This document shows, piece by piece, positions 11,730-62,435 of a DNA stretch of 64,000 nt. Source of the DNA: Mobula hypostoma (Eukaryota). The position numbers and the translations under genes were made by a program. The first letter of the stretch is position 1, and each line of letters begins with the position of its first letter. Location: positions 3,286,001 through 3,350,000 of the forward strand of contig NC_086097.1 of the NCBI RefSeq assembly GCF_963921235.1. The letters are read 5' to 3'. The notes beneath the pieces are model-generated. The model did no database searches. It saw only the letters and a program-made list of their open reading frames with translations, and was not told the DNA's origin.

Positions 11730-12079
11730 TTAAAGTACATATATGTCACTATATACAACCCTGAGATTAATTTTCTGGTGGGCATTCACAGTGAATAGAA
11801 GAAACACAAGAGAATCATTGAAAGACTGCACCCAACAGGATGGCCAGTAACCAATGTCCAAAGAAACCCACAAACTGTGCAAATACAAAAAGAAAGAGAA
11901 AATAAATAAATAAATAAATAAATAAGCAATAAATATTGAAAACCTGAGATGAAGAGTGCTTGAAGGTGAATCCATTGGTTGTGGGAACAGTTCAGTGTTT
12001 GGGTAAGTTAATTTGAGTGAAGTTATCCCCTCTGGTTCAAGACCCTGATGGTTGAGGGGTAATAGCTGTTCCTGAACCT
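11730..12079 (-). mobile_element. Rex1-like LINE 3' UTR
   Basis: Reverse complement of the UTR type seen at 23700-24105. Confidence 0.7.
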
Positions 12080-12689
12080 TGTGATGTATGTGGAGTGTTT
12101 AATATTTGACTGATACTTTGAGTGGTGTCTGAAAAGAGGATGCTGTCCAAGTTGCATGCCATCTTGGACAATGTCTCCCATCCACTACATAATGTACTGG
12201 TTGGGCACAGGAGTACATTCAGCCAGAGACTCATTCCTCCGAGATGCAACACAGAGCATCATAGGAAGTCATTCCTGCCTGTGGCCATCAAACTTTACAA
12301 CTCCTCCCTTGGAGGGTCAGACACCCTGAGCCAATAGGCTGGTCCTGGACTTATTTCCTGGCATAATTTACATATTACTATTTAACTATTTATGGTTTTA
12401 TTACTATTTATTATTTATGGTGCAACTGTAACGAAAACCAATTTCCCCCGGGATCAATAAAGTATGACTATGACTATGACTATGACTATGATAATGTAGA
12501 TACATTGTTTGATTAAGCATCTTTATTAGTTTACATGTCATTATGGGTTATATGTAAGAAGCATATGAATGACATATGACATTACACCATCGTGTCATAT
12601 GTGAGCGTCTGACTAAAAGAAAAAGGGCACACGCATCCCTGCTCCTGTATTTTTCTTTCGATTTGTTTATGGAAGTATAAAACATAACA
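12080..12689 (+). mobile_element. Gypsy-type LTR remnant interrupted by a Rex insertion
   Basis: TG...CA ends; 12510-12600 resembles the LTR at 63000-63090; followed by PBS-like gtagtgacc. Confidence 0.55.
12110..12491 (+). mobile_element. Rex1/Babar LINE 3' end with (atgact)n tail
   Basis: ORF 12122-12337 matches the C-terminus of the element at 59755-61785. Confidence 0.88.
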
Positions 12690-12879
12690 GTAGTGACCAG
12701 GTAATTTTAAAACAAACCCAAGTAGAACGTATTTTACTTTGGACCCACAAAGCAAAGTCCCCCTGGATCCCATGCCTCCTTACTTTCTCAATAAGCCTTG
12801 CATGGGGTACCTTGTCAAATGCCTTGCTGAAATCCATATACATTACATCTACTGCTCTACTTTTATCAATGTGTCCAGA

Positions 12880-13105
12880 AAAAAAAGGAAAGGAAATTGC
12901 CCTTTAAACTCACAGAGGGCACAGGCCATCAACTTTTTGCTGTTGATGTTTCTGTAGCAGGCAATTTCTTTTTTACGAGGTCGAGTTGCTAGCTCGACGA
13001 TCAACCCAGCACAGATGGAAAGCGTGCCTGGGGAGCTGACTGGGTTCGAACTCGGGAGCCTTCGCTCTGAAGTCTGGCACTGATGCCACTACACCACCAA
13101 CCAGC
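12880..13105 (-). mobile_element. tRNA-Pro-derived SINE
   Basis: Head and gtcgagctagcaactcgacctcgtaaaa body shared with 27098-27355. Confidence 0.75.
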
Positions 13106-13944
13106 AATCTGTTCTGTCACATCCTCAAAAAATTCAATCAGGCTCGTAAGGCACGACTAATCCTAATCATATTATGCCTCTCCAAATGTTCATAAATCCT
13201 GCCTCTCAGGATCTTCTCCATCAATTTACCAACCACTGAGGTAAGACTCACTGGTCTATAATTTCCTGGGCTATCTCTACTCCCTTTCTTGAATAAAGGA
13301 ACAACATCCACAACCCTCCAATCCTCTGTAACCTTTCCCGTCCCCATTAAAGATCATTCCCAGAGGCTCAGCAATCTCCTCCCTCGCTTCCCACAGTAGC
13401 CTGAGGTACATCTCGTTCGGTCCCAGTGACTTATCCAACTTGATGCTTTCCAAAAGCTCTGGCATATCCTCTTTCTTAATATCCATATGCTCAAGCTTTT
13501 CAATCCACTGTAAGTCAGCCCCACAATCGCCAAGATCCTTTTCTATGGTGAATACTGAAGCAAAGTATTCATTGAGTACCTTTGCTATCTCCTCCGGTTC
13601 CATAGACACTTTTCCACTGTCACACTTAATTGGTCCTATTCTCTCATGTCTTATCCTCTTGCTCTTCACATATTTGTCGAATGCCTTGGGGTTTTCTTTA
13701 ATCCTACTCACCCAGGCCCCTTCTGGCTCACTTAATTTCATTCTTAAGCTACTTCCTGCTAGCCTTATAATCTTCTAGATCTCTATCATTACCTAGTTTT
13801 TTGAACCTTTCGTAAGCTTTTTTGTACACCACAGTTCCTGTACCCTACCATCCTTTCCCTGTCTCATTGGAATGTACCTATGCAGAATGCCACGCAAATA
13901 TCCCCTGAACATTTGCTACATTTCTGCTGTACATTTCCCTGAGA

Positions 13945-14482
13945 ACAACAGGAATTCTGCAGATGCTGGAAACTCAAGCAACATACATCAAAGTTGCTGG
14001 TGAACGCAGCAGGCCAAGCAGCATCTATAGGAAGAGGCGCAGTCGACGTTTCAGGCCGAGACCCTTCGTCAGGACTAACTGAAGGAAGAGTGAGTAAGGG
14101 ATTTGAAAGCTGGAGGGGGAGGGGGAGATGCAAAATGATAGGAGAAGACAGGAGGGGGAGGGATAGAGCCGAGAGCTGGACAGGTGATAGGCAAAAGGGG
14201 ATACGAGAGGATCATGGGACAGGAGGCCTAGGGAGAAAGACGGGGGGGGGGGTGACCCAGAGGATGGGCAAGAGGTATATTCAGAGGGACAGAGGGAGAA
14301 AAAGGAGAGTGAGAGAAAGAATGTGTGCATAAAAAGGAGTAACAGCTGGGGTACGAGGGGGAGGTGGGGCCTAGCGGAAGTTAGAGAAGTCAATGTTCAT
14401 GCCATCAGGTTGGAGGCTACCCAGACGGAATATAAGGTGTTGTTCCTCCAACCTGAGTGTGGCTTCATCTTTACAGTAGAGT
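13945..14482 (-). mobile_element. Penelope-like element 3' fragment
   Basis: Minus strand encodes LYCKDEATLRLEEQHLIFRLGSLQPDGMNIDFSNFR* (GIY-YIG C-terminus), then pyrimidine tract and hammerhead motif. Confidence 0.88.
14041..14076 (-). ncRNA. Minimal type I hammerhead ribozyme motif
   Basis: AGUC-CUGACGA-A-GGGUCUCGGCCU-GAAAC-GUC-GACU: intact core, stem I AGUC/GACU, short stem II, loopless palindromic stem III. Confidence 0.75.
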
Positions 14483-14966
14483 AATCTGTTTCCAGTTTAT
14501 GCTTCCAAGTTCCTACCTGATAGCCTCATATTTCCCCTTACTCCAATTAAACACTTTCCTAACTTGTCTGTTCCTGTCCCTTTCCAATGCTATGGTAAAG
14601 GAGATAGAATTGTGATCACTATCTCCAAAATGCTCTCCCACTGAGAGACCCGACAACTGACCAGGTTCAGTTCCCAATACCAGATCAAGTACAACCTCTC
14701 CTCTTGTAGGCTTATCTACATATTGTGTCAAGAAACCTTCCTGAACACACCTAACAAACTCCACCCCATCTAAACCCCTTGCTCTAGGGAGATACCAATC
14801 AATATGTGGGAAATTAAAATCTCCCACCACGACAACTCTGTTATTATTACACCTTTCCAGAATCTGTCTCCCTATCTGCTCCTCGATGTCCTTGTTACTA
14901 TTGGGTAGTATACAAAAAACACCAAGTAGAGTTATTGACTCCTTCCTGTTTCTAACTTTCACCCAC

Positions 14967-15455
14967 TGTCATGGTCCGGTCCGTGAAGTCCGCATTCTGG
15001 TTCACGGTCCGGTCCATCGATCCTTGTTCCGGGTTTTCCTGTTTTCTGCCTTGTTCTGTTGGGTGCCTTAATTGAGGCACCTGATTCTCATTTTGGTCTG
15101 GCACATAAATACCTCTGCAAACCAATGATTGTTTGCTGGCCTGTTCCCTTCCCCTCCCCATCTGAATCCCTGGCAGTTACTTTGGCAGTTTATCTCAACA
15201 GTTATTTCGGCACTATCCTTCATCTGTTACCTTCACCTGCTACCTCACCTGCAACCTCGCCTGTGTCCTTGCCTGTATCCCCGTCAAGTTGAACCGCTGG
15301 AGTGAGATTGGAGCCTCGCCATGTCAAGATAAGAAACTATCTATTGTTGAGTTTGGAACTGTCTCTTTGTGTCCCCGTGTTTTGTGTCCGTGTCAAGAAG
15401 ATTCCCGGCCCTGGGTCCTGTTCCCAAGGAGGGGTCCTGGCTTTGTGTTTTTCTC
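14967..15455 (+). mobile_element. LTR fragment
   Basis: Starts tgtcatggtcc like the solo LTR at 20670-21144; TATA-like cataaata. Confidence 0.6.
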
Positions 15456-15780
15456 TGTCACCTGCCTATCCTCCCTCTCACACTGTCTCCAAGCTTTCTT
15501 TATTTGTCAGCCAACGGCCCCTTATTCCGTCACTTCAGTTCAGTTCCCACCCCCCAGCAATCCTAGTTTAAACTCTCCCCAATAGCCTTAGCAAACCTCC
15601 CTGACAGGATATTGGTCCCCCTCGGATTCAAGTGCAATCTGTCCTTCTTGTACAGGTCACACCTGCCCCAAAAGAGGCTCCAATGATCCAGAAATCTGAA
15701 TCCTGTTATAGAACAAAAATGTTGATTGTCTTTTAAGACATTACATTCAAACCAAACTGATTTTTAGCGTCCCATATTCA

Positions 15781-18589
15781 GTGGTTGTCTCTCAGGGTCC
15801 GAGGAAGACTGATCATTGTGCAGTCATCTGTGAATACGCATGTGGTTTTGGAGGCCGAAGGTCGAAGCACACATGTGGTTGCAGGTTGGACATGGAATGG
15901 CGGTTGTTAGAACAGGTGCATACACAGCTTTGTGGCATCGGTCTCATGCTGCTGCAAGGCGCTGATTTCAGTCATCCTCAAAGTCAGATGCAGCTTTTCT
16001 GGTCAGGGCGCACCACGCAGCCCTGTCGGCTATGGACTCCTCAAGTTGTTGAGGCTGGAGGTCTGCCCATTTGATGTACAATTTCAGATTGTCTTTGAAT
16101 CTTTTTTTGGGGCGGCCCTGATTGCGACTGCCGTACTCAAGCTCACCGTAGAGCAGCTGCCTGCGGATTGTTGTTTCACTCATGCCGATTACATGGTCAG
16201 TCCAGCGTAGCTGGGCCTGGAGGATCCTTACCTCAGTGCTTGTGCTGTTGGCTCTGTCAAGGACTTCCTGGTTGGTGATTCGGTCCTGCCATCGAATCCT
16301 CATGATCGACCGCAGAGAGCGCATGTGAAACTGCTCCAGCTGTTTGATGTGCCTGCGGTACAGGGTCCAGGTTTCACAGCCATACAGGAGAGAGGTGAGG
16401 ACCACAGCCTTGTACACCTTGAGCTTGGTTCAAAGCTGAATGTCCTTGTGCTCCAGAACTTTGACACGGAGTTTCCCGAGTGCCTGGCTAGCTTTCTGGA
16501 TCCTTGCTATGATCGCTTTGTCAAGGGATCCATCACTAGAGATGGTGCTTTCTAGATACTTGAAGCTCTCCACGTTCTTCAGGACAGTGCCATCGATGGT
16601 GATGTATGGTTGAGGAGGGTGACTGTTTGGTGCAGGTTGTAGGAGAACTTCTGTCTTACCGAGGCTGATTGTCAGGCCGAACAGCTTTGAGGCTGCAGAG
16701 AACTTCTCGACAATGGTCTGCAGGTGGTTCTCCTGGCGGGCTATGAGGGCACAGTCATCAGCAAACAGGGCTTCAGTGATGAGCCTCCTCAACGTTTTGG
16801 TCTTTGCTGCAAGGCGTCTCAGGTCAAACATCGATCCTTCTGGGCGATATCTTATGTAAATACCCAGGTCTAGGTCCTTAACAGCATGCTTCAGCATTTG
16901 GGTGAAGAAGAGGTTGAAGAGCACTGATGCTAGAACGCATCCTTGCTTCACGCCATTTAAGATGTTGTAAGTTTCTGAGAACACTTCTCCCGTCATGCCA
17001 TCGTGGAGCAGGCGGATGAGTGTAGTGAGTATCTGCGGGCAGCCAAGCTTTCTAAGGATGATCCACAGTGCGTTTCTGTTGACTGTGTCAAACACCTTCA
17101 TCAGATCAATGAAGACAGAGTATAATGTCATGTTCTGTTCCAGGCACTTCTCCTGTATCTGTCTCACTGCGAAGATCATGTCGACAGTGCTGCGTTCGGG
17201 ACGAAAGCCACATTGTGACTCGGGAAGGTTCGCTTCTGACACTGTTGGAATCAGTCTGTTGAGGATGATGTGGGCGAGGATTTTTCCGGCGATGGAAAGT
17301 AGTGAGATGCCTCTGTAGCTCCCGCAGTTGGTCCTTGAACCTTTATTTTTGTAGAGGGCAATTATCGTTGCGTCTCTAAGGTCAGGGGCATCTCACCTTC
17401 TTCCCAAATGCTAGTCAGGGTGCTGTGGAAAGCCTCAAGTGATCCCTTGCTGGGTGCCTTGTACAATTCAGCAGGTATTCCATCCTTGCCGGGCTCCTTG
17501 CCACTGCTCATCTGCGTGATAGCCTTCTTGACTTCATCTATTGAGGGAGGATCATCTAGTTCCTCGTGAATAGGCTGTTGGAGGATTTGGTCCAGAGCAG
17601 ACTGGTCGACCGATGAAGGGTGGTTCAGGAGCTGGCTGAAATGCCCTTTCCATCTGTGTTGGATGCTCTCTTTGTCCTTTAGCAATGTGGTTCCATCAGC
17701 GGACAACAGTAGAGATGAGCCAGTTCTTGAGGGGCCGAAGATCATCTTGATGGAGTTGAAGAGCAGCTTTGAGTTGTTGATGTTGGTGAAGCGTTGCACC
17801 TCTTCAGCTTTCCTATCCCACCACAGGTCGTGCATCTTGCGAATTTCCTGTTGGGCATGGGCCTGAAGGGACTTGAACTGCTCTTTTTTGGGAATGGAGC
17901 TTGGGTCGTTTTGCCACTCCGTGAATGCTTTGTTCTTCCTGCCCAGGAGATCTTTGATGGCACTTTCATTCTCGTTGAACCAATCTTGGTGGTTCCGGTC
18001 CTTGGGGCTGAGGACTGATTTTGCTGTCTCTGTCACCATCTCTCTAAACTGATTCCACTTCTGGGTTGGCCCACCAGTTAGTGGTCCATTGGAAGACAGC
18101 TTCTCATCAAGGGTGGTCTGGAACTTGCGAAGATACGGCGGCTTTTGGAGTCTGGCGGTGTTAAAAGCTGTTGTGATGAACTTAGGGTGCTTGAGATGGT
18201 GGGGAGCAATACGTAGCCTCAGTGTGGTGTGGACAAGCCTGTGGTCAGTCCAGCACTCCGCTCCTCACATGGTTGTGGTGATGAGGACATCCCAGATGTC
18301 TCGGCGACGTACTATAACATAGTTGATCATGTGCCAATGTTTGGATCTTGGGTGCATCCATGTTGTCTTGTACTTGTTTGCCAGCCTGAACACTGTGTTT
18401 GTGATGAGGAGGTCATATTCTGCACGTTTGCTATGGAGCAAGAGGCCATTGCTGTTCATATTGCCAATACCATGTTTGCCTAGAAGCCCTTCCCAGCGAC
18501 TGTGATCGCAGCTTACTCGGGCCTTGAAGTCACCGAGCAGGATTAGTCTGTCATTGGCAGGGACTGAGCACAGAACAGACCTAAGGTTG
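15781..18589 (-). mobile_element. RTE-clade LINE, 5'-truncated, decayed
   Basis: TWMHPRSKHWHMINY, ESQCGFRPERSTVDMIF, GVKQGCVLA, LFADDCAL, C-terminal CPTC..HMRIH; 49-bp flanking duplication. Confidence 0.93.
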
Positions 18590-18809
18590 TTTAAGACATT
18601 ACATTCGAACTAAACTAATTTTTAGTGTGCCATATTCAAATAAAGGTCAAACAGATATATTTCATAATGTAGCATATGATAGTTTGGTTAAAAATGCTAG
18701 TACACAGATTTTGTAGGCTTGGATTTTTAAACTGAATTTATGAACTTAGCAGAAACCTGTCTCTGGATATATGAGTGCATGCTTATTCTGGCCAAAGTGA
18801 CACTGGAAC

Positions 18810-29525: not shown

Positions 29526-29639
29526 AAACACGAGGTTTAGTCCTGACGAAGGGTCTCGGCCCGAAACATCAACTGTACCTCTTCCTAGAGATGCTGCCTG
29601 GCCTGCTGCGTTCACCAGCAACTTTGATGTGTGTTGATT
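29526..29639 (+). mobile_element. 114-bp Penelope-end insertion with hammerhead motif and 14-bp TSD
   Basis: aagtcttgcaactc at 29512-29525 and 29640-29653; ctgacgaagggtctcggcccgaaac inside. Confidence 0.85.
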
Positions 29640-29964
29640 AAGTCTTGCAACTCTTACTTTTGGATCTCCTGGACAAGCATCTAACTTTTATTTGCTCTTA
29701 AAAGAGACCAAGTTTGGGATCAGACTGAGATGGGGTTGCCTGTGTTGGAATTTTCCTAACTTGGTGAAATTTGACTTTTTGTTTGTCTACTGTATGGTGG
29801 GGGAGTAGAGATACGTCTCTACCAAAGGAGATGTAAGGTGCTCCTTTCCTCTGCTAGCCTGCAGGTCACCCTTGATAAGGTGAGGCACCTGCTTAGCCCC
29901 ACGATTAAGGTGATATGAAGCCTTGGAAGAAGGTGGATGGTTGTATGAGCAGGAGGGGGAGGAA

Positions 29965-30165
29965 CAGAATGATTCACCTATCACCTTCTACCTTGTCCAC
30001 CTTCCACTCCCCCACCTACTTATTCTGGCTTTTTAACCCTTCCTTTCCAGTCCTGATGAAGGGTCTGGGCACAAACATCGACTGTTTATTCATTTCCATG
30101 GATGCTGCGTGACCTGCTGAGTTCCTCCAGCATTTTGTGTGTGTTGCTTTGAATTTCCATTTCTG
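29965..30165 (+). mobile_element. Penelope-derived 3' fragment with decayed hammerhead
   Basis: cagtcctgatgaagggtctgggcacaaacatcgactg...gacctgctgagttcctccagc. Confidence 0.8.
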
Positions 30166-30808: not shown

Positions 30809-31169
30809 CACTACAAAATCTATAAACAAACAGACTGACAAATCACCAATGTGCAAACGAAGACAAACTGCAAATATATAAAAAAATAATTAATTATTAA
30901 TTCTGAAAACATGAGTTGCAGAATCCTGCACACTCACACTCATTCCTGGTGTGTGCCCTGTTTAATACCAGAATTACCTGCCCATAATACTATGTGTACA
31001 AGGCACAATTTTCCAAACAGTGTTTGAGGTAAAGGCCAACATTTCCAGCAGATAGCTCAATAACGATTATTTGTTTAAGATAACTAGTTTGGTAATATCA
31101 ATGGTATGCAATTAAAGAAAGTAATACTGAAGGAATTTCATCATTTGAAATACAACCTTGAACCTAAGA

Positions 31170-31786
31170 CACTACAGATTGCACTTTCTGAGGAAGCTTA
31201 AACAAGCATCACTCCCCACTAACATCTTAACTACTTTCTACAGAGGCGTGGTTGAGAGTATGCTGACCTTTTGCATCACAACCTGGTACTCCAGCTGCAG
31301 GGCTGTCGACAAAAAAGCCTTGCAGAAGGTGGTTAGGGGAGCAGAGAAGGTTATTCGGGTCTCCGTACCTTCTGTCCAAGACCTCTTTCAGAGTCGATGC
31401 CTCGGGAAGACACGAGACATCATTAAAGACCCCTCACACCCTCTCCATGAACTGTTTGTTCTTCTGCCATCAGGCAAACGTTACAGGATCATCAAAACTA
31501 AAACCACAAGGCTACTAAACAGCTTCCTCCCACAGGCAGTCAGACTGCTAAATAGCTGCTCCACCTGACTCTGCTTTGGACACTTTTAACTTGCACTGGA
31601 CACTTATAACTGATTTAACTGACATGTGGCTATTGTGTTTTACTATTTATTGTTATGTTTATTATTTAGTGCTGTGTTTGTTATGTTATGATTGCACTGC
31701 CCCTGAGGAACGCTGTCTCATTCTGCCCTGCAGAGCTGATGTATGGTTAGAATGACAACAAAGTTTTTTGAATCTTTGAATCTTTG
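31170..31786 (+). mobile_element. Rex1/Babar LINE 3' end
   Basis: ORF 31158-31568 RLHFLRKLK..DPSHPLHELFVLLPSGKRYR; tail gaatctttgaatctttg. Confidence 0.88.
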
Positions 31787-32375: not shown

Positions 32376-34802
32376 GGAACCATGGGTGACAGGTGAGGTG
32401 GAAAATCTAGTCAGGAGGAAGAAGGCAGCATACATGAGGTTTAGGAAGCAAGGATCAGATGGGTCTATTGAGGAATATAGGGAAGCAAGAAAGGAGCTTA
32501 AGAAGGGGCAGAGAAGAGCAAGAAGAGGGCATGAGAAGGCCTTGGCGAGTAGGGTAAAGGAAAACCCCAAGGCATTCTTCAATTATGTGAAGAAAAAAAG
32601 GATGACAGGAGTGAAGGTAGGACCGATTAGAGATAAAGGTGGGAAGATGTGCCTGGAGGCTGTGGAAGTGAGCGAGGTCCTCAATGAATACTTCTCTTCG
32701 GTATTCACCAATGAGAGGGAACTTGATGATGGTGAGGACAATATGAGTGAGGTTGATGTTCTGGAGCATGCTGATATTAAGGGAGAGGAGGTCCCTGGGG
32801 CCTGACGGAATATTCCCCAGGCTGCTCCACGAGGCGAGAGAAGAGATTGCTGAGCCTCTGGCTAGGATCTTTATGTCCTCGTTGTCCACGGGAATGGTAC
32901 CGGAGGATTGGAGGGAGGCGAATGTTGTTCCCTTGTTCAAAAAAGGTAGTAGGGATAGTCCAGGTAATTATAGACCAGTGAGCCTTATGTCTGTGGTGGG
33001 AAAGCTGTTGGAAAAGATTCTTAGAGATAGGATCTATAGGCATGTAGAGAATCATGGTCTGATCAGGGACAGTCAGCATGGCTTTGTGAAGGGCAGATCG
33101 TGTCTAACAAGCCTGATAGAGTTCTTTGAGGAGGTGACCAGGCATATAGATGAGGGTAGTGCAGTGGATGTGACCTATATGGATTTTAGTAAGGCATTTG
33201 ACAAGGTTCCACATGGTAGGCTTATTCAGAAAGTTAGAAGGCATGGGATCCAGGGAAGTTTGTCCAGGTGGATTCAGAATTGGCTTGCCTGCAGAAGGCA
33301 GAGGGTGGTGGTGGAGGGAGTACATTCAGATTGGAGGATTGTGACTAGTGGTGTCCCACAAGGATCTGTTCTGGGACCTCTACTTTTCGTGATTTTTATT
33401 AACGACCTGGATGTGGGGGTAGAAGGGTGGGTTGGCAAGTTTGCAGACGACACAAAGGTTGGTGGTGTTGTAGATAGTGTAGAGGATTTTCAAAGATTGC
33501 AGAGAGACATTGATAGGATACAGAAGTGGGCTGAGAAGTGGCAGATGGAGTTCAACCCGGAGAAGTGTGAGGTGGTACACTTTGGAAGGACAAACTCCAA
33601 GGCAGAGTACAAAGTAAATGGCCGGATACTTGGTCGTGTGGAGGAGCAGAGGGATCTCGGGGTACATGTCCACAGATCCCTGAAAGTTGCTTCACAGGTG
33701 GATAGGGTAGTTAAGAAAGCTTATGGGGTGTTAGCTTTAATAAGTCGAGGGATAGAGTTTAAGAGTTGCGATGTAATGATGCAGCTCTATAAAACTCTGG
33801 TTAGGCCACACTTGGAGTACTGTGTCCAGTTCTGGTCACCTCACTATAGGAAGGATGTGGAAGCATTGGAAAGGGTACAGAGGAGATTTAACAGGAAATT
33901 TATTGTTCACCATTTGTGGCCATGTCCTGAACTCTCATGGTTGGATTATCAGTAACTCCTTTCTGAAACTTTGCTATCTCTCTCCTCACTGAAGACATAA
34001 AACCCACATACTTGATTAAACGCTGTATTCCTGTGCCCTGTCAAATTGTGTTGGATTCCCTACAAGAATCACTAAAGGTTAACTTGCAAGTTGAGTGAGG
34101 AGGGCAAATGAAATGTTAGCATTCATTTTGAAAGGACGAGAATATAAAGCAAGCAGGTAATGCTGAGGCTTTATAAGACGGTGACAGGCTGTATCACTCT
34201 CTGGTGTGGGGAGCTACTGCACAGGACTGAAAGAAGCTGCAGAGGGTTGTAAATTTAGTCGACTCCATCTTGAGTACTAGCCTGCATCTTCAAGGAGTGG
34301 GTTCCTTTCCACATCAACTCTGTCTAGGCCTTTCTACATTCAAAAGATTTACCAGGATGCTGCCTGGTTTAGAGAGTATGCGTTATGATCAGAGATTAAG
34401 GGAGCTAGGGCTTTACTCTTTGGAGAGATGGAGGATGAGAGGAGACATGATAGAGGTGTACAAGATAATAAGAGGAATAGATAGAGTGGATTGCCAGTGC
34501 CTCTTCCCCAGGGCACCACTGCTCAATACAAGAGGACATGGCTTTAAGGTAAGGGGTGGGAAGTTCAAGGGGGATATTAGAGGAAGGTTTTTTACTCAGA
34601 GAGTGGTTGGTGCGTGGAATGCACTGCCTGCGTCAGTGGTGGAGGCAGATACACTAGTGAAGTTTAAGAGACTGCTAGACAGGTATATGGAGGAATCTAA
34701 GGTGGGGGCTTATATGGGAGGCAGGGTTTGAGGGTTGGCACAACATTGTGGGCCGAAGGGCCTGTACTGTGCTGTACTATTCTATGTTCTATGTTCTATG
34801 TT
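32376..34802 (+). mobile_element. Young 5'-truncated CR1 LINE containing a 450-bp foreign insert
   Basis: RT ORF 32747-33955 (QHGF, DFSKAFDKVPH, GVPQGSVLGP, KFADDTK); (ttctatg)n tail; TSD caaat 32371-32375 / 34803-34807 within an older CR1. Confidence 0.95.
33895..34344 (+). repeat. Local duplication of 48774-49223
   Basis: Near-identical direct copy about 14.88 kb upstream of its partner. Confidence 0.95.
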
Positions 34803-35856: not shown

Positions 35857-36905
35857 TTAACATCTGGAAAGACAATTGACAATTATATTATCCTTGCCTT
35901 TAATGCGAGTTATCATGAGATTATACTCCTGCAAAATCAAACTCCAATTCAACAACCTTCTATTTTTGTTCTTCACCTTACTCAAGAACACCAATGGATT
36001 ATGATCTGTATAAACCACAAGTGGTTTCTGAGCTGGGCAAACATGCACATCAAAATGCTGCAAAGCCAAAATAAGTGATAATAATTCCTTCTCGATGGTG
36101 GAATAATTTCTTTGATGCTCATTGAATTTCTTTGAAAAGTAAGCCACAGGATGGTCAACATCATCATAATCATCCCTTTGTAGTAACACTGCTCCTGCAG
36201 CTTCATCACTGGCATCTACGGCTATGGAAAATAGCTTTGCAAAGTCAGGTGACTTGAGCACAGGTTGGTGACATAAGATGGCTTTCGATTTATCAAATGC
36301 CTCCTGACAAGGCTCTGTCCAAACAAACTTCTCACCCTTTTTCAGGAGGTTAGTCAATGGGAGATGAACATCAGCAAAGTTCTTACAGAACTTGCGATAA
36401 TATCTGACCATTCCCAGGAATCTTCAAAGAGCTTTTTTACCAGTTGAAATGGGAACTTCAGAAATTGCCTGAACAGGAGCCAACCTGCCTTGACCAACAA
36501 CATAACCAATATAGGTCACAGTGGCATGGCCAAGTTCACTCTTAGCTAAGTTAACTGTAAGGATGACCTTTGAGAGCCTGTCAGACAGCTTTTCCACTGC
36601 AGAGATATGGGTTTCCCAGGTGTCATTCCCTATGACTAAATCATCAATCTAGGTATCAGTGTGTTCTAACCCTTGAATTACAGAATTAATCATTCTCTGG
36701 AATGTTCCCAGAGCATCTCTCATTCCAAATGGCAGAACATTGTACTAATACAACCCAGAAGGCATTACAAATGCAGAAATTTCTCTACCTCTATCTGTTA
36801 ATGGACCACACCAACACCCTTTCAACAGATCGATCTTTGTAAGAAACTTAGCCTTTCCAACCTTGTCTACACAATCATCCACTCTAGGGATGGGATAAGC
36901 ATCTC
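35857..36905 (-). pseudogene. RT-RNase H remnant
   Basis: AYPIPRVDDC, KIDLLKG, PFGM, *IDD; RNase H VDASD..YFSKK..YSTIEKELL..TDHNPL..NCLSRC*. Confidence 0.9.
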
Positions 36906-36911
36906 AGCTGG

Positions 36912-38838
36912 TCACCACTTCCTCATTAACACTCCATCCCTGAAATAATACCCAGCTGGTACTTTCTCAATCTCATCACCTGGAAGAGCTCTTTCTTTCA
37001 AGGCAGTAAGCTCAGGGTCTCTGGTCTGTTCCGCTATAAACTCCTTCCTGGACAGAGACAAATCTTTATAGTCAGCCCTAATACAAGGATCCTGTTCCAA
37101 TAATGATGGAAGGAAGGTCGCTGACAAGTCATCAAGATCTGAGTCCCGATTTGGGCTATCATGGGTAGCAGAACCATGCTGCACAGGACCATCCGCACTG
37201 GCAAGCTTCTTTGCCATAGCTCGAGTTACTGTACAGGATGGATAAACATTAGAATCCATCTTTGGGTCATCAGTGTTTGGCTTAGTCGTCAGCTGCACTG
37301 CAGGGACAACTTTACCACCTGCCAGGTCATTCCCTAACAACAAAGAAACACCCGTCACCAGTAAACTGGGCCGTAGTCCTATCTTAACCAGTCCTGAAAC
37401 TAACTCTGACTTCAAAATTACCTTGTGCAAAGGTACAGAAACAATGTCATCCCCAATGCCTTGAATAAAATTTACCTCACCAATGGCAGTCTCATCACTA
37501 AACTCTAGAACATTGTCTAACAAGAGTGACTGAGAAGCCCCAGTATCTCGAAGAATTTTCACTGGTACCGGGGATGACCCTTCGTTCACTGAAACAAACC
37601 CCTCTGACATAAAAGGAATGAATTCTTTTCTGACCAGATCAGACGTCTCAGCCTTTGACAGAGCTTCATCAGAAGGTCTGGAACCCTGTGGGTTTATAGG
37701 TGTTTCAAAGTGTTGAACACAGGCATCTGGAACTGCCTCCTTTTCCTTCTTCTTCCTTAGGAGGAAACAGTTAGCCATAACATGACCAGGTTTCCTGCAA
37801 TAGTGACAAGTAGGACCAGAATGTTTCTCCTTCAATTGTTTCCCTTCATCCTTACCTTTGTCACTAGACCCAGATTTAATTTCTGGTTTACCCTGACTAT
37901 CCGTGCTACCCTTGTGGAAGTTCTTACTTGGGGCAAACTTAAACTTGTGGGTTAAAGCAAACTCATCTGCTAATTTAGCAGATTCTTGCAAAGTAGCAGC
38001 ATCCTTCTCATCTAAATATGTCTTTATATCATTATGGATGCACCTTTTAAACTCTTCAATTAAAACCAACTCTTCCAATTTGTCAAAATCATCATCCATA
38101 TTTTTAGATGTGCACCATCGTTTAAAATACACAGACTTCTCATAAGCAAATTCCACATGAGTCTGGCTCACAGATTTCTTCAAATCCCTAAACCTTTGCC
38201 TATAAGCTTCTGGAACCAGTTCATAAGCTTTAAGCACAGCCTGTTTTACTGTCCCATAGTCAGCTGCATCGTCAACTGATAGGGCAGAATATGCTTGCTG
38301 AGCCTTACCCTTAATTACACTCTGTAACAGGAGAGGCCAACCGTCTCTTGCCACTGTAGGTTCTGAGCAACTTTCTCAAAATTTCAACCTTGGCCTCATC
38401 AAACAGAGGAACCAATTTAACTTCCCGACTGGCAACAAACTTATCCCTAGAGCCAGAAATATGACTCTCGAGCCTTAACTTTTCCATCTTTATCTTAAAC
38501 TGCCTTTGTCTTTCTCTTTTCCTTTCCTCAGCTTTTAATCTAAGTTTCTCTCGCTTGAACTTTAATTGTTCCAGCCATAACTGAAGCTCAGGGTTACCTG
38601 GTTTACTTTCAGAAAACCTTTCTAATATCTCCTCTTCAAACACCTCCGTAGATATGTAGTGCTCAGCTCTTCTCCTCTGAATCTCTGACTTTCTCATAGC
38701 TGGCCTTACCGTAACAAGGTCCAGCTTATTAGCAATGACCAACAACTCTTTCTTTCTGACTTCCTCTAATGCCTCAGAGGTTGGTGATGCCAGAAATTTA
38801 TCAATATCCATTGCTGCTTGTTTCCACACACAAATCAA
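36912..38838 (-). pseudogene. Gag (SCAN-like capsid CTD, CCHC knuckle) - aspartic protease
   Basis: AYELVPEAYRQRFR..LIEEFK, CHYCRKPGHVMANC, LRDTGASQSL; frameshift near 38350. Confidence 0.9.
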
Positions 38839-41048: not shown

Positions 41049-41214
41049 TTCATGAAGAAGGCTATTATAAATTCCCTGATAATTGTAAATCTAAAATGAA
41101 AAACCAGGTGAATGACGTCCTCTATAGTACTTCCCTCTTCCAAAATTTGATGCCATTCACAAACTCCAAAGCTGTATTTCTGTGTCCATTTTAAATGAGG
41201 GATGAGCCACTTGA

Positions 41215-41685
41215 CAATGCTGGAGGAGCTCAGCAAGCCAGGGTGGAAATAAACAGTCGAAGCTTCAGGCTGAGATGTCTCGTAAGGATCAGAAAGGATG
41301 GAATAGAAGCCAGAAGGAAAAGGTGGGAGGGGGTGGGCAGAGGGGTACAAGCTGGTAGGTGATAGGTGAGATCAGGTGAGGGAGATGGTGGGTGGGCAGG
41401 GGAGGGGGGATGAATTAAGAAGTTGGAGGGATGGATGGAAGAAGAATGTCTGAGGAAGACAATCTGATCGAAGAGGACAGTCGATGATGAGAGAGAGAGA
41501 TAGAGGAGGACCACCAGAGGGAGGTGATGGGAAGATCAGCAGAACTGAAGGGGAGTGAGGGGCTCACCAGATTGGGAATGGAAAAAGAAGTGGTCAAGGG
41601 GAATAATTAGTGAAGTTGGAGAAATCGATGCTCATGCTCTCAGGTTAGAGTCTACGCAGACAGAACATGAGGTGTTGCTCCTCTG
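41215..41685 (-). mobile_element. Penelope-like 3' fragment, old
   Basis: Minus strand EEQHLMFCLRRL*PESMSIDFSNF; layout as 13945-14482; decayed hammerhead at 41254-41290. Confidence 0.8.
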
Positions 41686-48307: not shown

Positions 48308-48500
48308 AACAGGAGAAAGTCTGCAGATGCTGGAAATCCAAAGTAACACACACAAGATGCTGGAGGAACTCAGCAGGTCAGGTAGCATCTATGGAAAAAA
48401 GTAAACAGTCAACATCTTGGCCCAAAATATCGACTGTTTATCCTTTCCCATAGATGCTGCCTGATCTGCTGAGTTCCTCCAGCGTTTTGTTTGTGTTGCT
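48308..48500. mobile_element. Fold-back element made of two inverted Penelope ends, inserted in a Rex fragment
   Basis: About 75-bp imperfect inverted arms centred near 48420. Confidence 0.8.
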
Positions 48501-49179
48501 GTAGAAGACGGCATGTCCGAGATGACAGGGGTCCTCAATAATAGCATCAGTTTCTTGAGGCATTGCTTTCTGAAGATGTCTAAAATGCTGTGGAGGCTCA
48601 TGCCACATGGAGCTGGGTGAGCTTGCTAGTTTCTGTGGCTTTTCCCGATTCTATTTATGCAAAGCCCATAAGTATCTGCATAGCCTGTGTTTAGTTCATC
48701 CCCTTCCTAACTCTGTAATCTCCTTCACACTAGTAAACCTCCTCCTAGTTCAGCAATGACTTTAATCATTCTTGAAATTGATTGTTCACCATTTGTGGCC
48801 ATGTCCTGAACTCTCATGGTTGGATTATCAGTAACTCCTTTCTGAAACTTTGCTATCTCTCTCCTCACTGAAGACATAAAACCCACATACTTGATTAAAC
48901 GCTGTATTCCTGTGCCCTGTCAAATTGTGTTGGATTCCCTACAAGAATCACTAAAGGTTAACTTGCAAGTTGAGTGAGGAGGGCAAATGAAATGTTAGCA
49001 TTCATTTTGAAAGGACGAGAATATAAAGCAAGGAGGTAATGCTGAGGCTTTATAAGACGGTGACAGGCTGTATCACTCTCTGGTGTGGGCGGGCTGCTGT
49101 ACAGGACTGAAAGAAGCTGCAGAGGGTTGTAAATTTAGTCGACTCCATCTTGAGTACTAGCCTGCATCTTCAAGGAGTG

Positions 49180-50925
49180 GGTTCCTTTCCACATCAACTC
49201 TGTCTAGGCCTTTCTACATTCAAAAGATTTACCAGGATGCTGCCTGGTTTAGAGAGTATGCATTATGATCAGACATTAAGGGAGCTAGGGCTTTACTCTT
49301 TGGAGAGAAGGAGGATGAGAGGAGACATGATAGAGGTGTACAAGATAATAAGAGGAATAGATAGAGTGGATAGCCAGCGCCTCTTCCCCAGGGCACCACT
49401 GTTCAATACAAGAGGACATGGCTTTAAGGTAAGGGGTGGGAAGTTCAAGGGGGATATTAGAGGAAGGTTTTTTACTCAGAGAGTGGTTGGTGCGTGGAAT
49501 ACTCTGCCTGAGTCAGTGGTGGAGGCAGATACACTAGTGAAGTTTAAGAGACTACTAGACAGGTATATGGAGGAATTTAAGGTGGGGGCTTATATGGGAG
49601 GCAGGGTTTGAGGGTCGGCACAACATTGTGGGCCGAAGGGCCTGTACTGTGCTGTACTATTCTATGTTCTATGTTCAATGAGGTCTATCCTCAGCCTTCT
49701 AAATTCCAGTGAGTACAGACCTAGAGCCATCAAACATTCCTTGTATGATAAACCTTTCATTCCTGGAACGATCCTTGTGAACCTCCTCTGGAGCCTCTCC
49801 AATGCCAGCACATCTTTTCTAAGATGAGAAGCCCAAAACTGTTCACAATACTCAAGGTGAGACCTCACCAGTGCCTTATAAAGCCTCAGCATCACATCCC
49901 TGCTCTTGTATTCTAGACCTCTTGAAATGAATGCTAACATTGTATTTGCCTTCCTCACCACTGACTCAACCTGCAAGTTAACTCCCAAGTCCCTTTGCAG
50001 CTCAGATCTTTGGATTTTCTCCCCATTTAGAAAAATAGTCTGCACATTTATTTTTACTACTAAAGTGTATGACCATGTTCCAACATTGTATTTCATTTGC
50101 CACTTTCTTGCCCATTACCCTAATCCGTCTAAGTCCTTCTGCATCCTACCTGTTTCCTCAACACTACCTGCCCCTCCGCCAATCTTCATATCATCTACAA
50201 ACTTGGCAACAAAGCTATCTATTTCATCATCTAAATCATTTACATACAATATAAAAAGAAGTGGTCCCAACACCGAACCCCTGCAGACCATCACTAGTCA
50301 CTAGCAGCCAACCAGACAAGGATCCTTTCATTCCCACTTGCTGCCTCCTTCTAATCAGCCAATGCTCTAACCATGTTAGTAACTGTCCTGTAATACCATG
50401 AGCTCTTAACTTGGTAAGCAGCCTCATGTGTGGCAGCTTGTGAAAGGCCTTCTGAAAGTCCAAATATACAATATATCCCCTTTATCTATCGTACTTGTAA
50501 TCTCCTCAAAGAATTCCAACAGGTTCGTCAGGCAGGATTTTCCCTGAATGAAACCATGTTGACTTTGTCCTATCTTGTCCTGTGTCACCAATTATTCCAT
50601 CACCTTGTCCTTAATAATTGACTCTAACATTTTCCCAACCACTGAGGTCAGGCTAACTGGTCTATAATTTCCTTTCTGCTGCCTTCCTCCTTTCTTAAAG
50701 AGTGGAGTGACATTTGCAATTTTCCAGTCCTCTGGCACCATGTCAGAGTCCAATCATTTTTGAAAGATCATTTCTACTGCCTCCACAATCTCTACCGCTA
50801 TCTCTTTCAGAACCCTAGGGTACAGTTCATCTGGTCGGGGTGATTTATGTACCTTTAGGTCTTTCAGATTTTTGAGCACCTTCTCCCTTGTAATAGTAAC
50901 TCCACTCACTTCTCTTCCTTCACAC
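49180..50925 (-). mobile_element. Older CR1 RT fragment hosting a young CR1 3' end (49224-49673, +)
   Basis: ORFs 49662-50096, 50236-50463, 50754-50978; inner copy has TSD ttcaa 49219-49223 / 49674-49678. Confidence 0.9.
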
Positions 50926-61785: not shown

Positions 61786-62034
61786 TACTTTCAAGATAAT
61801 TATGGGAAAGGATAAGTCTGGTCCTCAGGTTGAGATTCTAAATTGGAGATAGTATCAGAAAGGATCTGGCAGTAGATTGGGACAGGCTGTTTTCTGGCAA
61901 AGGTGGACTTGGTCAGTGGGAGGCTTTCAAAGGTGAAATTTTGAGAGTACAAAGTTTGTATGTGCCTGTCAGAGTAAAAAACAATGACTGATGATGACCC
62001 CAACAGACTCACTGGTGAAGTATCGTCCTTCCAG

Positions 62035-62435
62035 GTTAGGCAACACTTCACCTGGGGTCAGCTACTGTATCTGGTGCTCCTGGTGTGGCCTCCCGTATAT
62101 CAGTGAGACCCGCTGTAGATTGGGAGACCACTTTGCTTTGTCTGCTAAAAAAATTGGGATTCCCGGTAGTCACCCATTTCAATTCTACTTCCCATTCCCA
62201 TTCCAAAATGTCAGTCCATGGCCTCCTCTATTGCTAGGATGAGGCTACACTCGAGCTGGAGGAGCAATACTTTATATTCCATCTGTGTAGCCTCCAACCT
62301 GATGACATGAGTTACCCCCTCCTCTCTCCTTCACCATTCCCCATTCCTGTTTATCTCTGCTTTCTTCTCTTCTTCCCTGCCCATCAGCCCCCTTTGGTGC
62401 TCTCCTCCTTTCCATTCTTCTATCCTATCCTGAAG
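62035..62435 (+). mobile_element. Penelope-like GIY-YIG endonuclease fragment
   Basis: GVSYCIWCSWCGLPYISETRCRLGDHF and DEATLELEEQYFIFHLCSLQPDDM. Confidence 0.85.

Follow-up and report, generated by a model that had tools for sequence, protein, structure and literature searches.

A minimal type I hammerhead motif in a 5'-truncated Penelope-like element nested in a LINE of the ray Mobula hypostoma

Minimal hammerheads of Penelope-like elements

A minimal class of hammerhead ribozymes (min-HHR) in the pseudo-LTRs (pLTRs) of metazoan Penelope-like elements (PLEs) was described in 2014 by Cervera and De la Pena (PMC4209133). As reported there, single min-HHRs do not cleave, dimers and trimers cleave weakly, and functions other than self-cleavage are left open. 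According to a review (PMC6765202), the PLE hammerheads studied by Lunse, Weinberg and Breaker possess a short palindromic stem III and cleave as dimers. The anole PLE hammerhead (PAc; Frangieh et al. 2024; PMC11167929) is described as cleaving only with the PLE protein, and its cleavage depends on C3/G8 and can be rescued in the manner of a hammerhead. The protein-binding region is placed in the ORF start, core mutants leave insertion in vitro unaffected, and no RNA-seq read is reported to end at the hammerhead site (PMC11167929). Naiad elements are said to thrive without canonical hammerheads (PMC8557442). The same source places a zinc-finger-like linker in Neptune and Nematis elements, records that Penelope/Poseidon elements lack the CX2-5CxxC linker, and describes an inverted truncated arrangement of PLEs. 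Animal non-LTR retrozymes are derived from PLE pLTRs and have been reported in one chondrichthyan genome (bioRxiv 10.64898/2026.07.22.740005).

The motif described here lies on the minus strand of a 64,000-nucleotide stretch of the M. hypostoma genome (contig NC_086097.1, positions 3,286,001 to 3,350,000), hereafter the window. It is highly likely to represent the minimal type I hammerhead carried by a ray PLE family of very high abundance and probable Neptune affinity; the copy, shortened at its 5' end to 537 bp, lies inserted in a LINE and is probably silent at this locus.

All published sequence features of PLE minimal type I hammerheads are present, as is the location behind an endonuclease tail, and the assignment to this class by the sequence-only reading is upheld. 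Shared with the metazoan min-HHRs are the type I topology, the CUGANGA and GAAA boxes, the extra base between positions 9 and 10.1, the palindromic 15.2-16.2 pair without loop 3, a short stem I, a pyrimidine-rich 5' side, and a 3' copy behind the endonuclease in a 5'-truncated element; most published motifs are likewise single dispersed copies (PMC4209133). The ray motif differs in that its stem II has 4 bp, at the short end, and a G.U instead of the commonest G10.1-C11.1, and cartilaginous fish appear neither in the 56 rows of Fig. S3 nor in Table S1 of that paper. Like PAc, it has stems I and II and lies in the pLTR of a vertebrate PLE that encodes an endonuclease; however, PAc is described as a Poseidon-clade element whose ORF starts inside stem II, whereas the closest protein here has a Neptune-type linker. 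For PAc, protein-assisted cleavage has been shown. The short palindromic stem III is shared with the dimer-cleaving PLE hammerheads as the review describes them. Non-LTR retrozymes are reported as tandem arrays of at least two consecutive ribozyme-bearing units, in contrast to the single copy with an endonuclease tail found here; neither a tandem array over the element in 12000-16000 nor an adjacent hammerhead copy was seen, and a retrozyme identity was rejected.

The motif is one more dispersed copy of a class known since 2014, and the only gap that it touches is taxonomic (rays). In the library searched, no paper specifically on PLE minimal hammerheads of rays was found (in PMC6155905, "shark" is part of a name), and Lunse et al. 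or the 2026 retrozyme preprint may already cover the family.

The motif and the element that carries it

Direct reading of 14076-14041 on the minus strand agrees exactly with the letters given by the sequence-only reading, and both core boxes, the GUC triplet, stem I (AGUC/GACU), the extra A, and the palindromic stem III were all located by coordinate (Table 1). The motif is confirmed as a genuine copy of a PLE hammerhead. The palindromic 15.2-16.2 pair reads ACGU, and stem III can form only between two copies.

Table 1. Features of the hammerhead motif, its element, and related fragments, in window coordinates.
Feature	Position	Strand	Remark
Minimal type I hammerhead motif	14041..14076	minus	Matches published min-HHR consensus line
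Predicted cleavage site	between C14045 and G14044	minus	After GUC triplet
Stem I	5' arm 14076-14073 with 3' arm 14044-14041	minus	4 Watson-Crick pairs; closes motif (type I)
Core box CUGANGA (positions 3-9)	14066..14072	minus	Here CUGACGA
Extra A between positions 9 and 10.1	14065	minus	Published consensus (Fig. S3) has H there
Stem II	14053..14064	minus	G.U (10.1-11.1), G-C, G-C, U.G, plus 4-nt loop
GAAA box, loopless palindrome, and C17	14045..14052	minus	GAAA 14052-14049; palindromic ACGU 14049-14046; GUC triplet 14047-14045
Upstream stretch, predicted off-state hairpin	14079..14091	minus	Would pair with CUGACGA box and 5' side of stem II (14072-14061)
5'-truncated PLE, 537 bp	13947..14483	minus	One junction base ambiguous
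Last 36-37 codons and stop of PLE GIY-YIG endonuclease domain	14371..14484	minus	P0001
Pyrimidine-rich spacer of 3' pseudo-LTR, 294 nt	14077..14370	minus	Stop codon to ribozyme
3' tail of pseudo-LTR	13947..14040	minus	Common to four other window fragments
Upstream part of interrupted host LINE	14484..14968	minus	AP-endonuclease domain; Pfam Exo_endo_phos_2, E 1.5e-10
Downstream part of interrupted host LINE	12667..13946	minus	Broken ORF2 pieces; translations, likeness to other window LINE copies, joints
Further PLE fragment	29537-29643	plus	
Further PLE fragment	30049-30159	plus	
Further PLE fragment	about 41190-41683	minus	
Further PLE fragments	48320-48476	both	
Further PLE fragment	62008-62312	plus	

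Calling the motif intact, as had been done, is slightly generous: all core bases are kept, but pair 10.1-11.1 is G.U rather than G-C. Two of the four stem II pairs are wobble pairs, the core-proximal one being G14064.U14053, and the stem has an energy of -2.5 kcal/mol as against -5.1 in the sibling at 29539, which has G-C there. By a hand count, the 56 published representatives carry 43 G-C, 8 G.U and 5 other pairs at this place; a G.U is therefore natural and need not impair cleavage. No paper on how a G.U at this pair affects kinetics was found. As the altered base would otherwise belong to a CpG, we infer that the G.U arose by CpG decay after insertion.

A descriptor demanding the boxes, stems I and II and the 15.2-16.2 pair, modelled on a published one but composed after the motif had been seen, finds a single match in the window, the motif itself, and none in 200 dinucleotide shuffles. 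When only the two boxes and NUH are demanded, the window has two matches against 1.05 expected, and 29 of 100 shuffles reach two; the box-only pattern is not significantly above chance. Covariance models did not detect the motif: an Rfam search of the window at the gathering threshold returned no match, and the three weak matches in 13800-14300 at E up to 10 belong to no hammerhead family, as is expected of a motif without stem III. A canonical Rfam-type type I hammerhead is ruled out by the lack of any Rfam model match and of an intramolecular stem III. Folding stability provides no evidence for the motif, since the z-score of the 36-mer is -0.37 and 64 of 200 shuffles fold equally well.

The motif belongs to a 537-bp PLE insert for which no target-site duplication was seen when the junction was read directly. 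In the public runs X1, X5 and X8, respectively, 9, 9 and 10 contigs join 13946 directly to 14484 and lack the 537 bases between; these are most simply other, uninterrupted copies of the flanking LINE, and the junction as read in the sequence agrees with these contig joints. The interrupted LINE is presumably CR1-type. Behind 14481, 369, 272 and 66 contigs have loose ends that show the PLE family continuing upstream. By eye, these ends translate to the residues of P0002 that precede the endonuclease tail, and the copy is thus 5'-truncated at that point.

The tail of the endonuclease is identical at 34 of 36 residues to positions 334-369 of P0002, an M. hypostoma protein; the other two named matches among the 15 found are from Hypanus sabinus and Rhinoraja longicauda. 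P0002 itself matches Pfam GIY-YIG with E 4.6e-4 and 20.9 bits, below the 22.6 cut-off. Within 14484-14371 there is no start, no RT or GIY-YIG motif, and no Pfam match of its own. Of the Penelope GIY-YIG ORF previously placed upstream of the ribozyme, the endonuclease identity stands, but "ORF" overstates what is present, namely the last 36-37 codons. The first part of the spacer also matches a P0002 read-through, at 38 of 46 residues. A database model from R. longicauda (P0005) bears the name neuromedin-U receptor 1, and its end is a PLE endonuclease tail with 78% identity to the query; an exonised repeat or an artefact of annotation is the probable explanation.

Inspection of P0002 by eye shows the end of an RT, a C-X4-C-X2-C linker, a GIY-YIG-like stretch and a CCHH pattern. 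On inspection by eye, the two closest proteins (P0002 and P0003) have a CX2-5CxxC-type linker followed by a C-terminal GIY-YIG with CCHH; the window copy begins downstream of the linker. Set against the clade features given in PMC8557442, the P0002 linker makes Neptune the likely clade, and the family is probably a Neptune-clade PLE, as judged from its closest protein. The window holds no PLE RT for a clade tree.

Related copies and genomic surroundings

Contigs matching the 1-kb stretch 13700-14700 number 206,280 in X1, 164,682 in X5 and 13,889 in X8 (RNA by guess); these totals count contigs rather than copy numbers and derive partly from the LINE flanks. Run X21 (raw DNA reads) gave no matching read, which is no test of abundance. 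Of 30 bins, the one that contains the hammerhead (14040-14073) has the greatest depth in both X1 and X5, though not in X8. Contigs with loose ends accumulate at the two edges of the motif, 14040 (477, 373 and 103 contigs in X1, X5 and X8) and 14076 (484 contigs in X1). Past these edges, the tail and the upstream sequence of the loose-ended contigs differ from those seen here; the hammerhead block, but not its flanks, is therefore common to this and one or more other subfamilies. The presence of the family in X8 makes it plausible that some copies are transcribed. In X8, the depth of the PLE ends exceeds that of the LINE flanks by more than in the DNA runs, depth being a poor measure of expression.

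Three window siblings cover the whole motif, and each has damaging changes, whereas the copy at 14041-14076 keeps all core nucleotides. The best-kept sibling, at 29539, lies 15 kb away on the opposite strand, and its stem I and its palindrome both contain mismatches; no intact same-strand hammerhead partner exists within the window. This sibling belongs to a 107-bp piece of the same subfamily (29537-29643) that is 91% identical, consists of ribozyme and tail only, starts two bases before stem I, and keeps C11.1. At 48320-48476, two PLE tail fragments of opposite orientation stand back to back; each is cut off within the ribozyme motif, and the pair resembles the inverted truncated arrangement described for PLEs (PMC8557442). 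The fragments at 30049-30159, 41190-41683 and 62008-62312 are older; in the last, a GIY-YIG domain survives with frameshift and stop, and the fragment breaks off short of its ribozyme.

The stem covariation score of six decayed window copies is reached by 372 of 500 shuffles. Among the 40 of 86 variant places listed for the run contigs, none falls inside the motif. A tail pattern that avoids the motif recovered no viral contig, one metagenome contig and one genome contig as family copies; of these two matches, L001 was rejected as an unrelated bacterial-type coding sequence, and L002 lies in what its title calls a bacterial MAG. Neither P0002 nor the motif pattern matched viral contigs.

Self-repeats cover 48% of the window. 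No host-gene domain was found by Pfam in 10 proteins, in 135 of 152 ORFs of at least 62 aa (mostly unique sequence), or in 107 of 144 ORFs of 45-61 aa, a scan that would miss exons under 45 codons. The 17 longer ORFs left out comprise 6 already in the 10-protein scan and 11 alternative frames inside a LINE, and the shorter ones left out lie inside recognised transposon ORFs. Pfam matches in the window are to transposon-type domains, ALKBH8_N being the one host-named match (31149-31568, plus strand, E 1.5e-10). It was rejected as a host gene, as it is the end of a transposon ORF in a repeat of which tblastn finds 16 more pieces across the window; a Myogenic Basic match (E 0.073) on a transposase ORF was treated as noise. 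The repeat content, together with the presence of transposon-type domains only, leaves the idea of a host intron without support, although short exons or a long intron could escape such scans. Among the listed contig pieces, none spans the stretch as a locus-specific transcript would.

Other elements populate the window. A long LINE ORF2 in several pieces, unique in the window and with an RT domain (E 1e-32), occupies 15968-18609 on the minus strand and is, we assume, RTE-type. At 35860-38375 (minus strand), an ORF with SCAN and zinc-knuckle domains is followed by RT and RNase H pieces, forming an LTR retrotransposon with a SCAN-bearing gag, which we take to be Gypsy/Gmr1-like. An internally repetitive array of roughly 900 bp with open frames on the minus strand spans 1955-2845, and a 907-bp duplication with 98% identity (33895-34800 and 48774-49680) is much younger than most window repeats.

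Prospects of cleavage at this copy

In an active element, the hammerhead motif would lie in the pLTRs. Two copies in a tandem transcript would then pair through the ACGU palindrome, or the RT-endonuclease protein would refold the RNA, with cleavage to follow after GUC. A pairing partner or protein would be needed because the motif has no stem III of its own; both this dependence and the low activity are taken from papers on other species.

In isolation, the 36-mer is predicted to form stems I and II with probabilities of 0.65-0.95, and its predicted minimum-energy fold pairs the CUGACGA box with the GUC strand. Once at least 30 nt of natural flank is included, the predicted probability of both stems falls to 0.00, because 14091-14079 would pair with 14072-14061 (predicted pair probabilities 0.81-0.93). 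This upstream hairpin is stronger than flank composition predicts; when the upstream 40 nt are shuffled, 4 of 300 versions reach the observed value, a figure that concerns one copy and a feature noticed post hoc; in the sibling at 30049 it is not significant (108 of 300 shuffles). UCAG precedes the box in 7 of the 56 published rows, judged by eye, against about 2.6 expected, and 4 of the 7 are related vertebrate rows. The hairpin was rejected as a general PLE feature, given the non-significant sibling and the lack of real support from the published rows. At the present locus, the modelled pairing could represent an off-state that the PLE protein refolds. The active homodimer, which can be drawn without pseudoknots, is predicted at -9.5 kcal/mol in a model that leaves out tertiary contacts; in the same model the best dimer fold has -28.3 and two monomers have -20.0 kcal/mol. 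As folding models omit the tertiary contacts of the core, they understate any hammerhead.

The sequence-only reading had proposed that this copy could still cleave itself if transcribed, for example inside a host intron. This is not supported: published monomers are inactive, the window offers no intact same-strand partner, stems I and II vanish from the predicted fold in natural flank, and no host-gene domain was found among the ORFs scanned. Cleavage at the locus is, as far as these predictions go, unlikely, and a short dead fragment in a genome full of PLEs is ordinary and probably silent. One alternative keeps the same origin and supposes that a minus-strand read-through or intronic transcript is still cut in cells with the help of PLE protein supplied by an active element, or by pairing in trans with another of the many transcribed copies. 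The core is indeed complete, with a G.U that published representatives tolerate, and the protein assistance reported for the anole ribozyme (PMC11167929) would fit, as would the abundance of the family, its presence in X8, the stems predicted for the isolated 36-mer, and an active dimer that can be drawn. That dimer is, however, predicted to be far less stable than its competitors, no listed contig piece spans the locus, the scanned ORFs contain no host-gene domain, and in the anole system as described no RNA-seq read ends at the site and the protein binds at the ORF start; continued cleavage here seems unlikely. Bolder still is the supposition that selection has kept 14091-14079 as an off-switch, to be released when PLE protein binds, and that copies are cut in trans inside host transcripts when the protein is expressed, which we regard as very unlikely.

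A different role for the block has also to be weighed. If the host had exapted this copy, perhaps for intronic regulation in the manner of the RECK-type hammerheads of amniotes, a single observation would speak for it, that the core is complete here while the window siblings have decayed; yet the 94% identity to the family protein sequence means that simple youth explains the intactness. Moreover, the surroundings are a fragment of one transposon inside another, self-repeats cover nearly half of the window, and no stable stem III, Rfam match or host gene was found, which makes exaptation extremely improbable. Conservation of the block for a protein-binding or promoter role in the pLTR, with the likeness to a hammerhead merely vestigial, is compatible with the functions left open in PMC4209133, with the insertion in vitro of anole core mutants (PMC11167929), and with the success of Naiad elements (PMC8557442). 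Against it, the anole motif is reported to cleave with the dependence and rescue expected of a hammerhead, and sharing between subfamilies stops at the ends of stem I; such a role is highly improbable. The preferred reading remains that of a hammerhead relic in a truncated element, and we infer that the copy is silent for want of a partner, a protein of its own, and a favourable fold.

As it stands, the significance of the motif is small. The question for the field is the role of PLE hammerheads in vivo, of which a young, full-length tandem element of this family would be a better test than the 537-bp fragment. If the off-switch and cutting in trans were true, PLE hammerheads would, under certain conditions, break RNA from all over the genome in rays. 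Were dispersed copies to be cut in host RNA with the help of the protein, ray genomes would offer a strong system for their study because of the abundance of the family.
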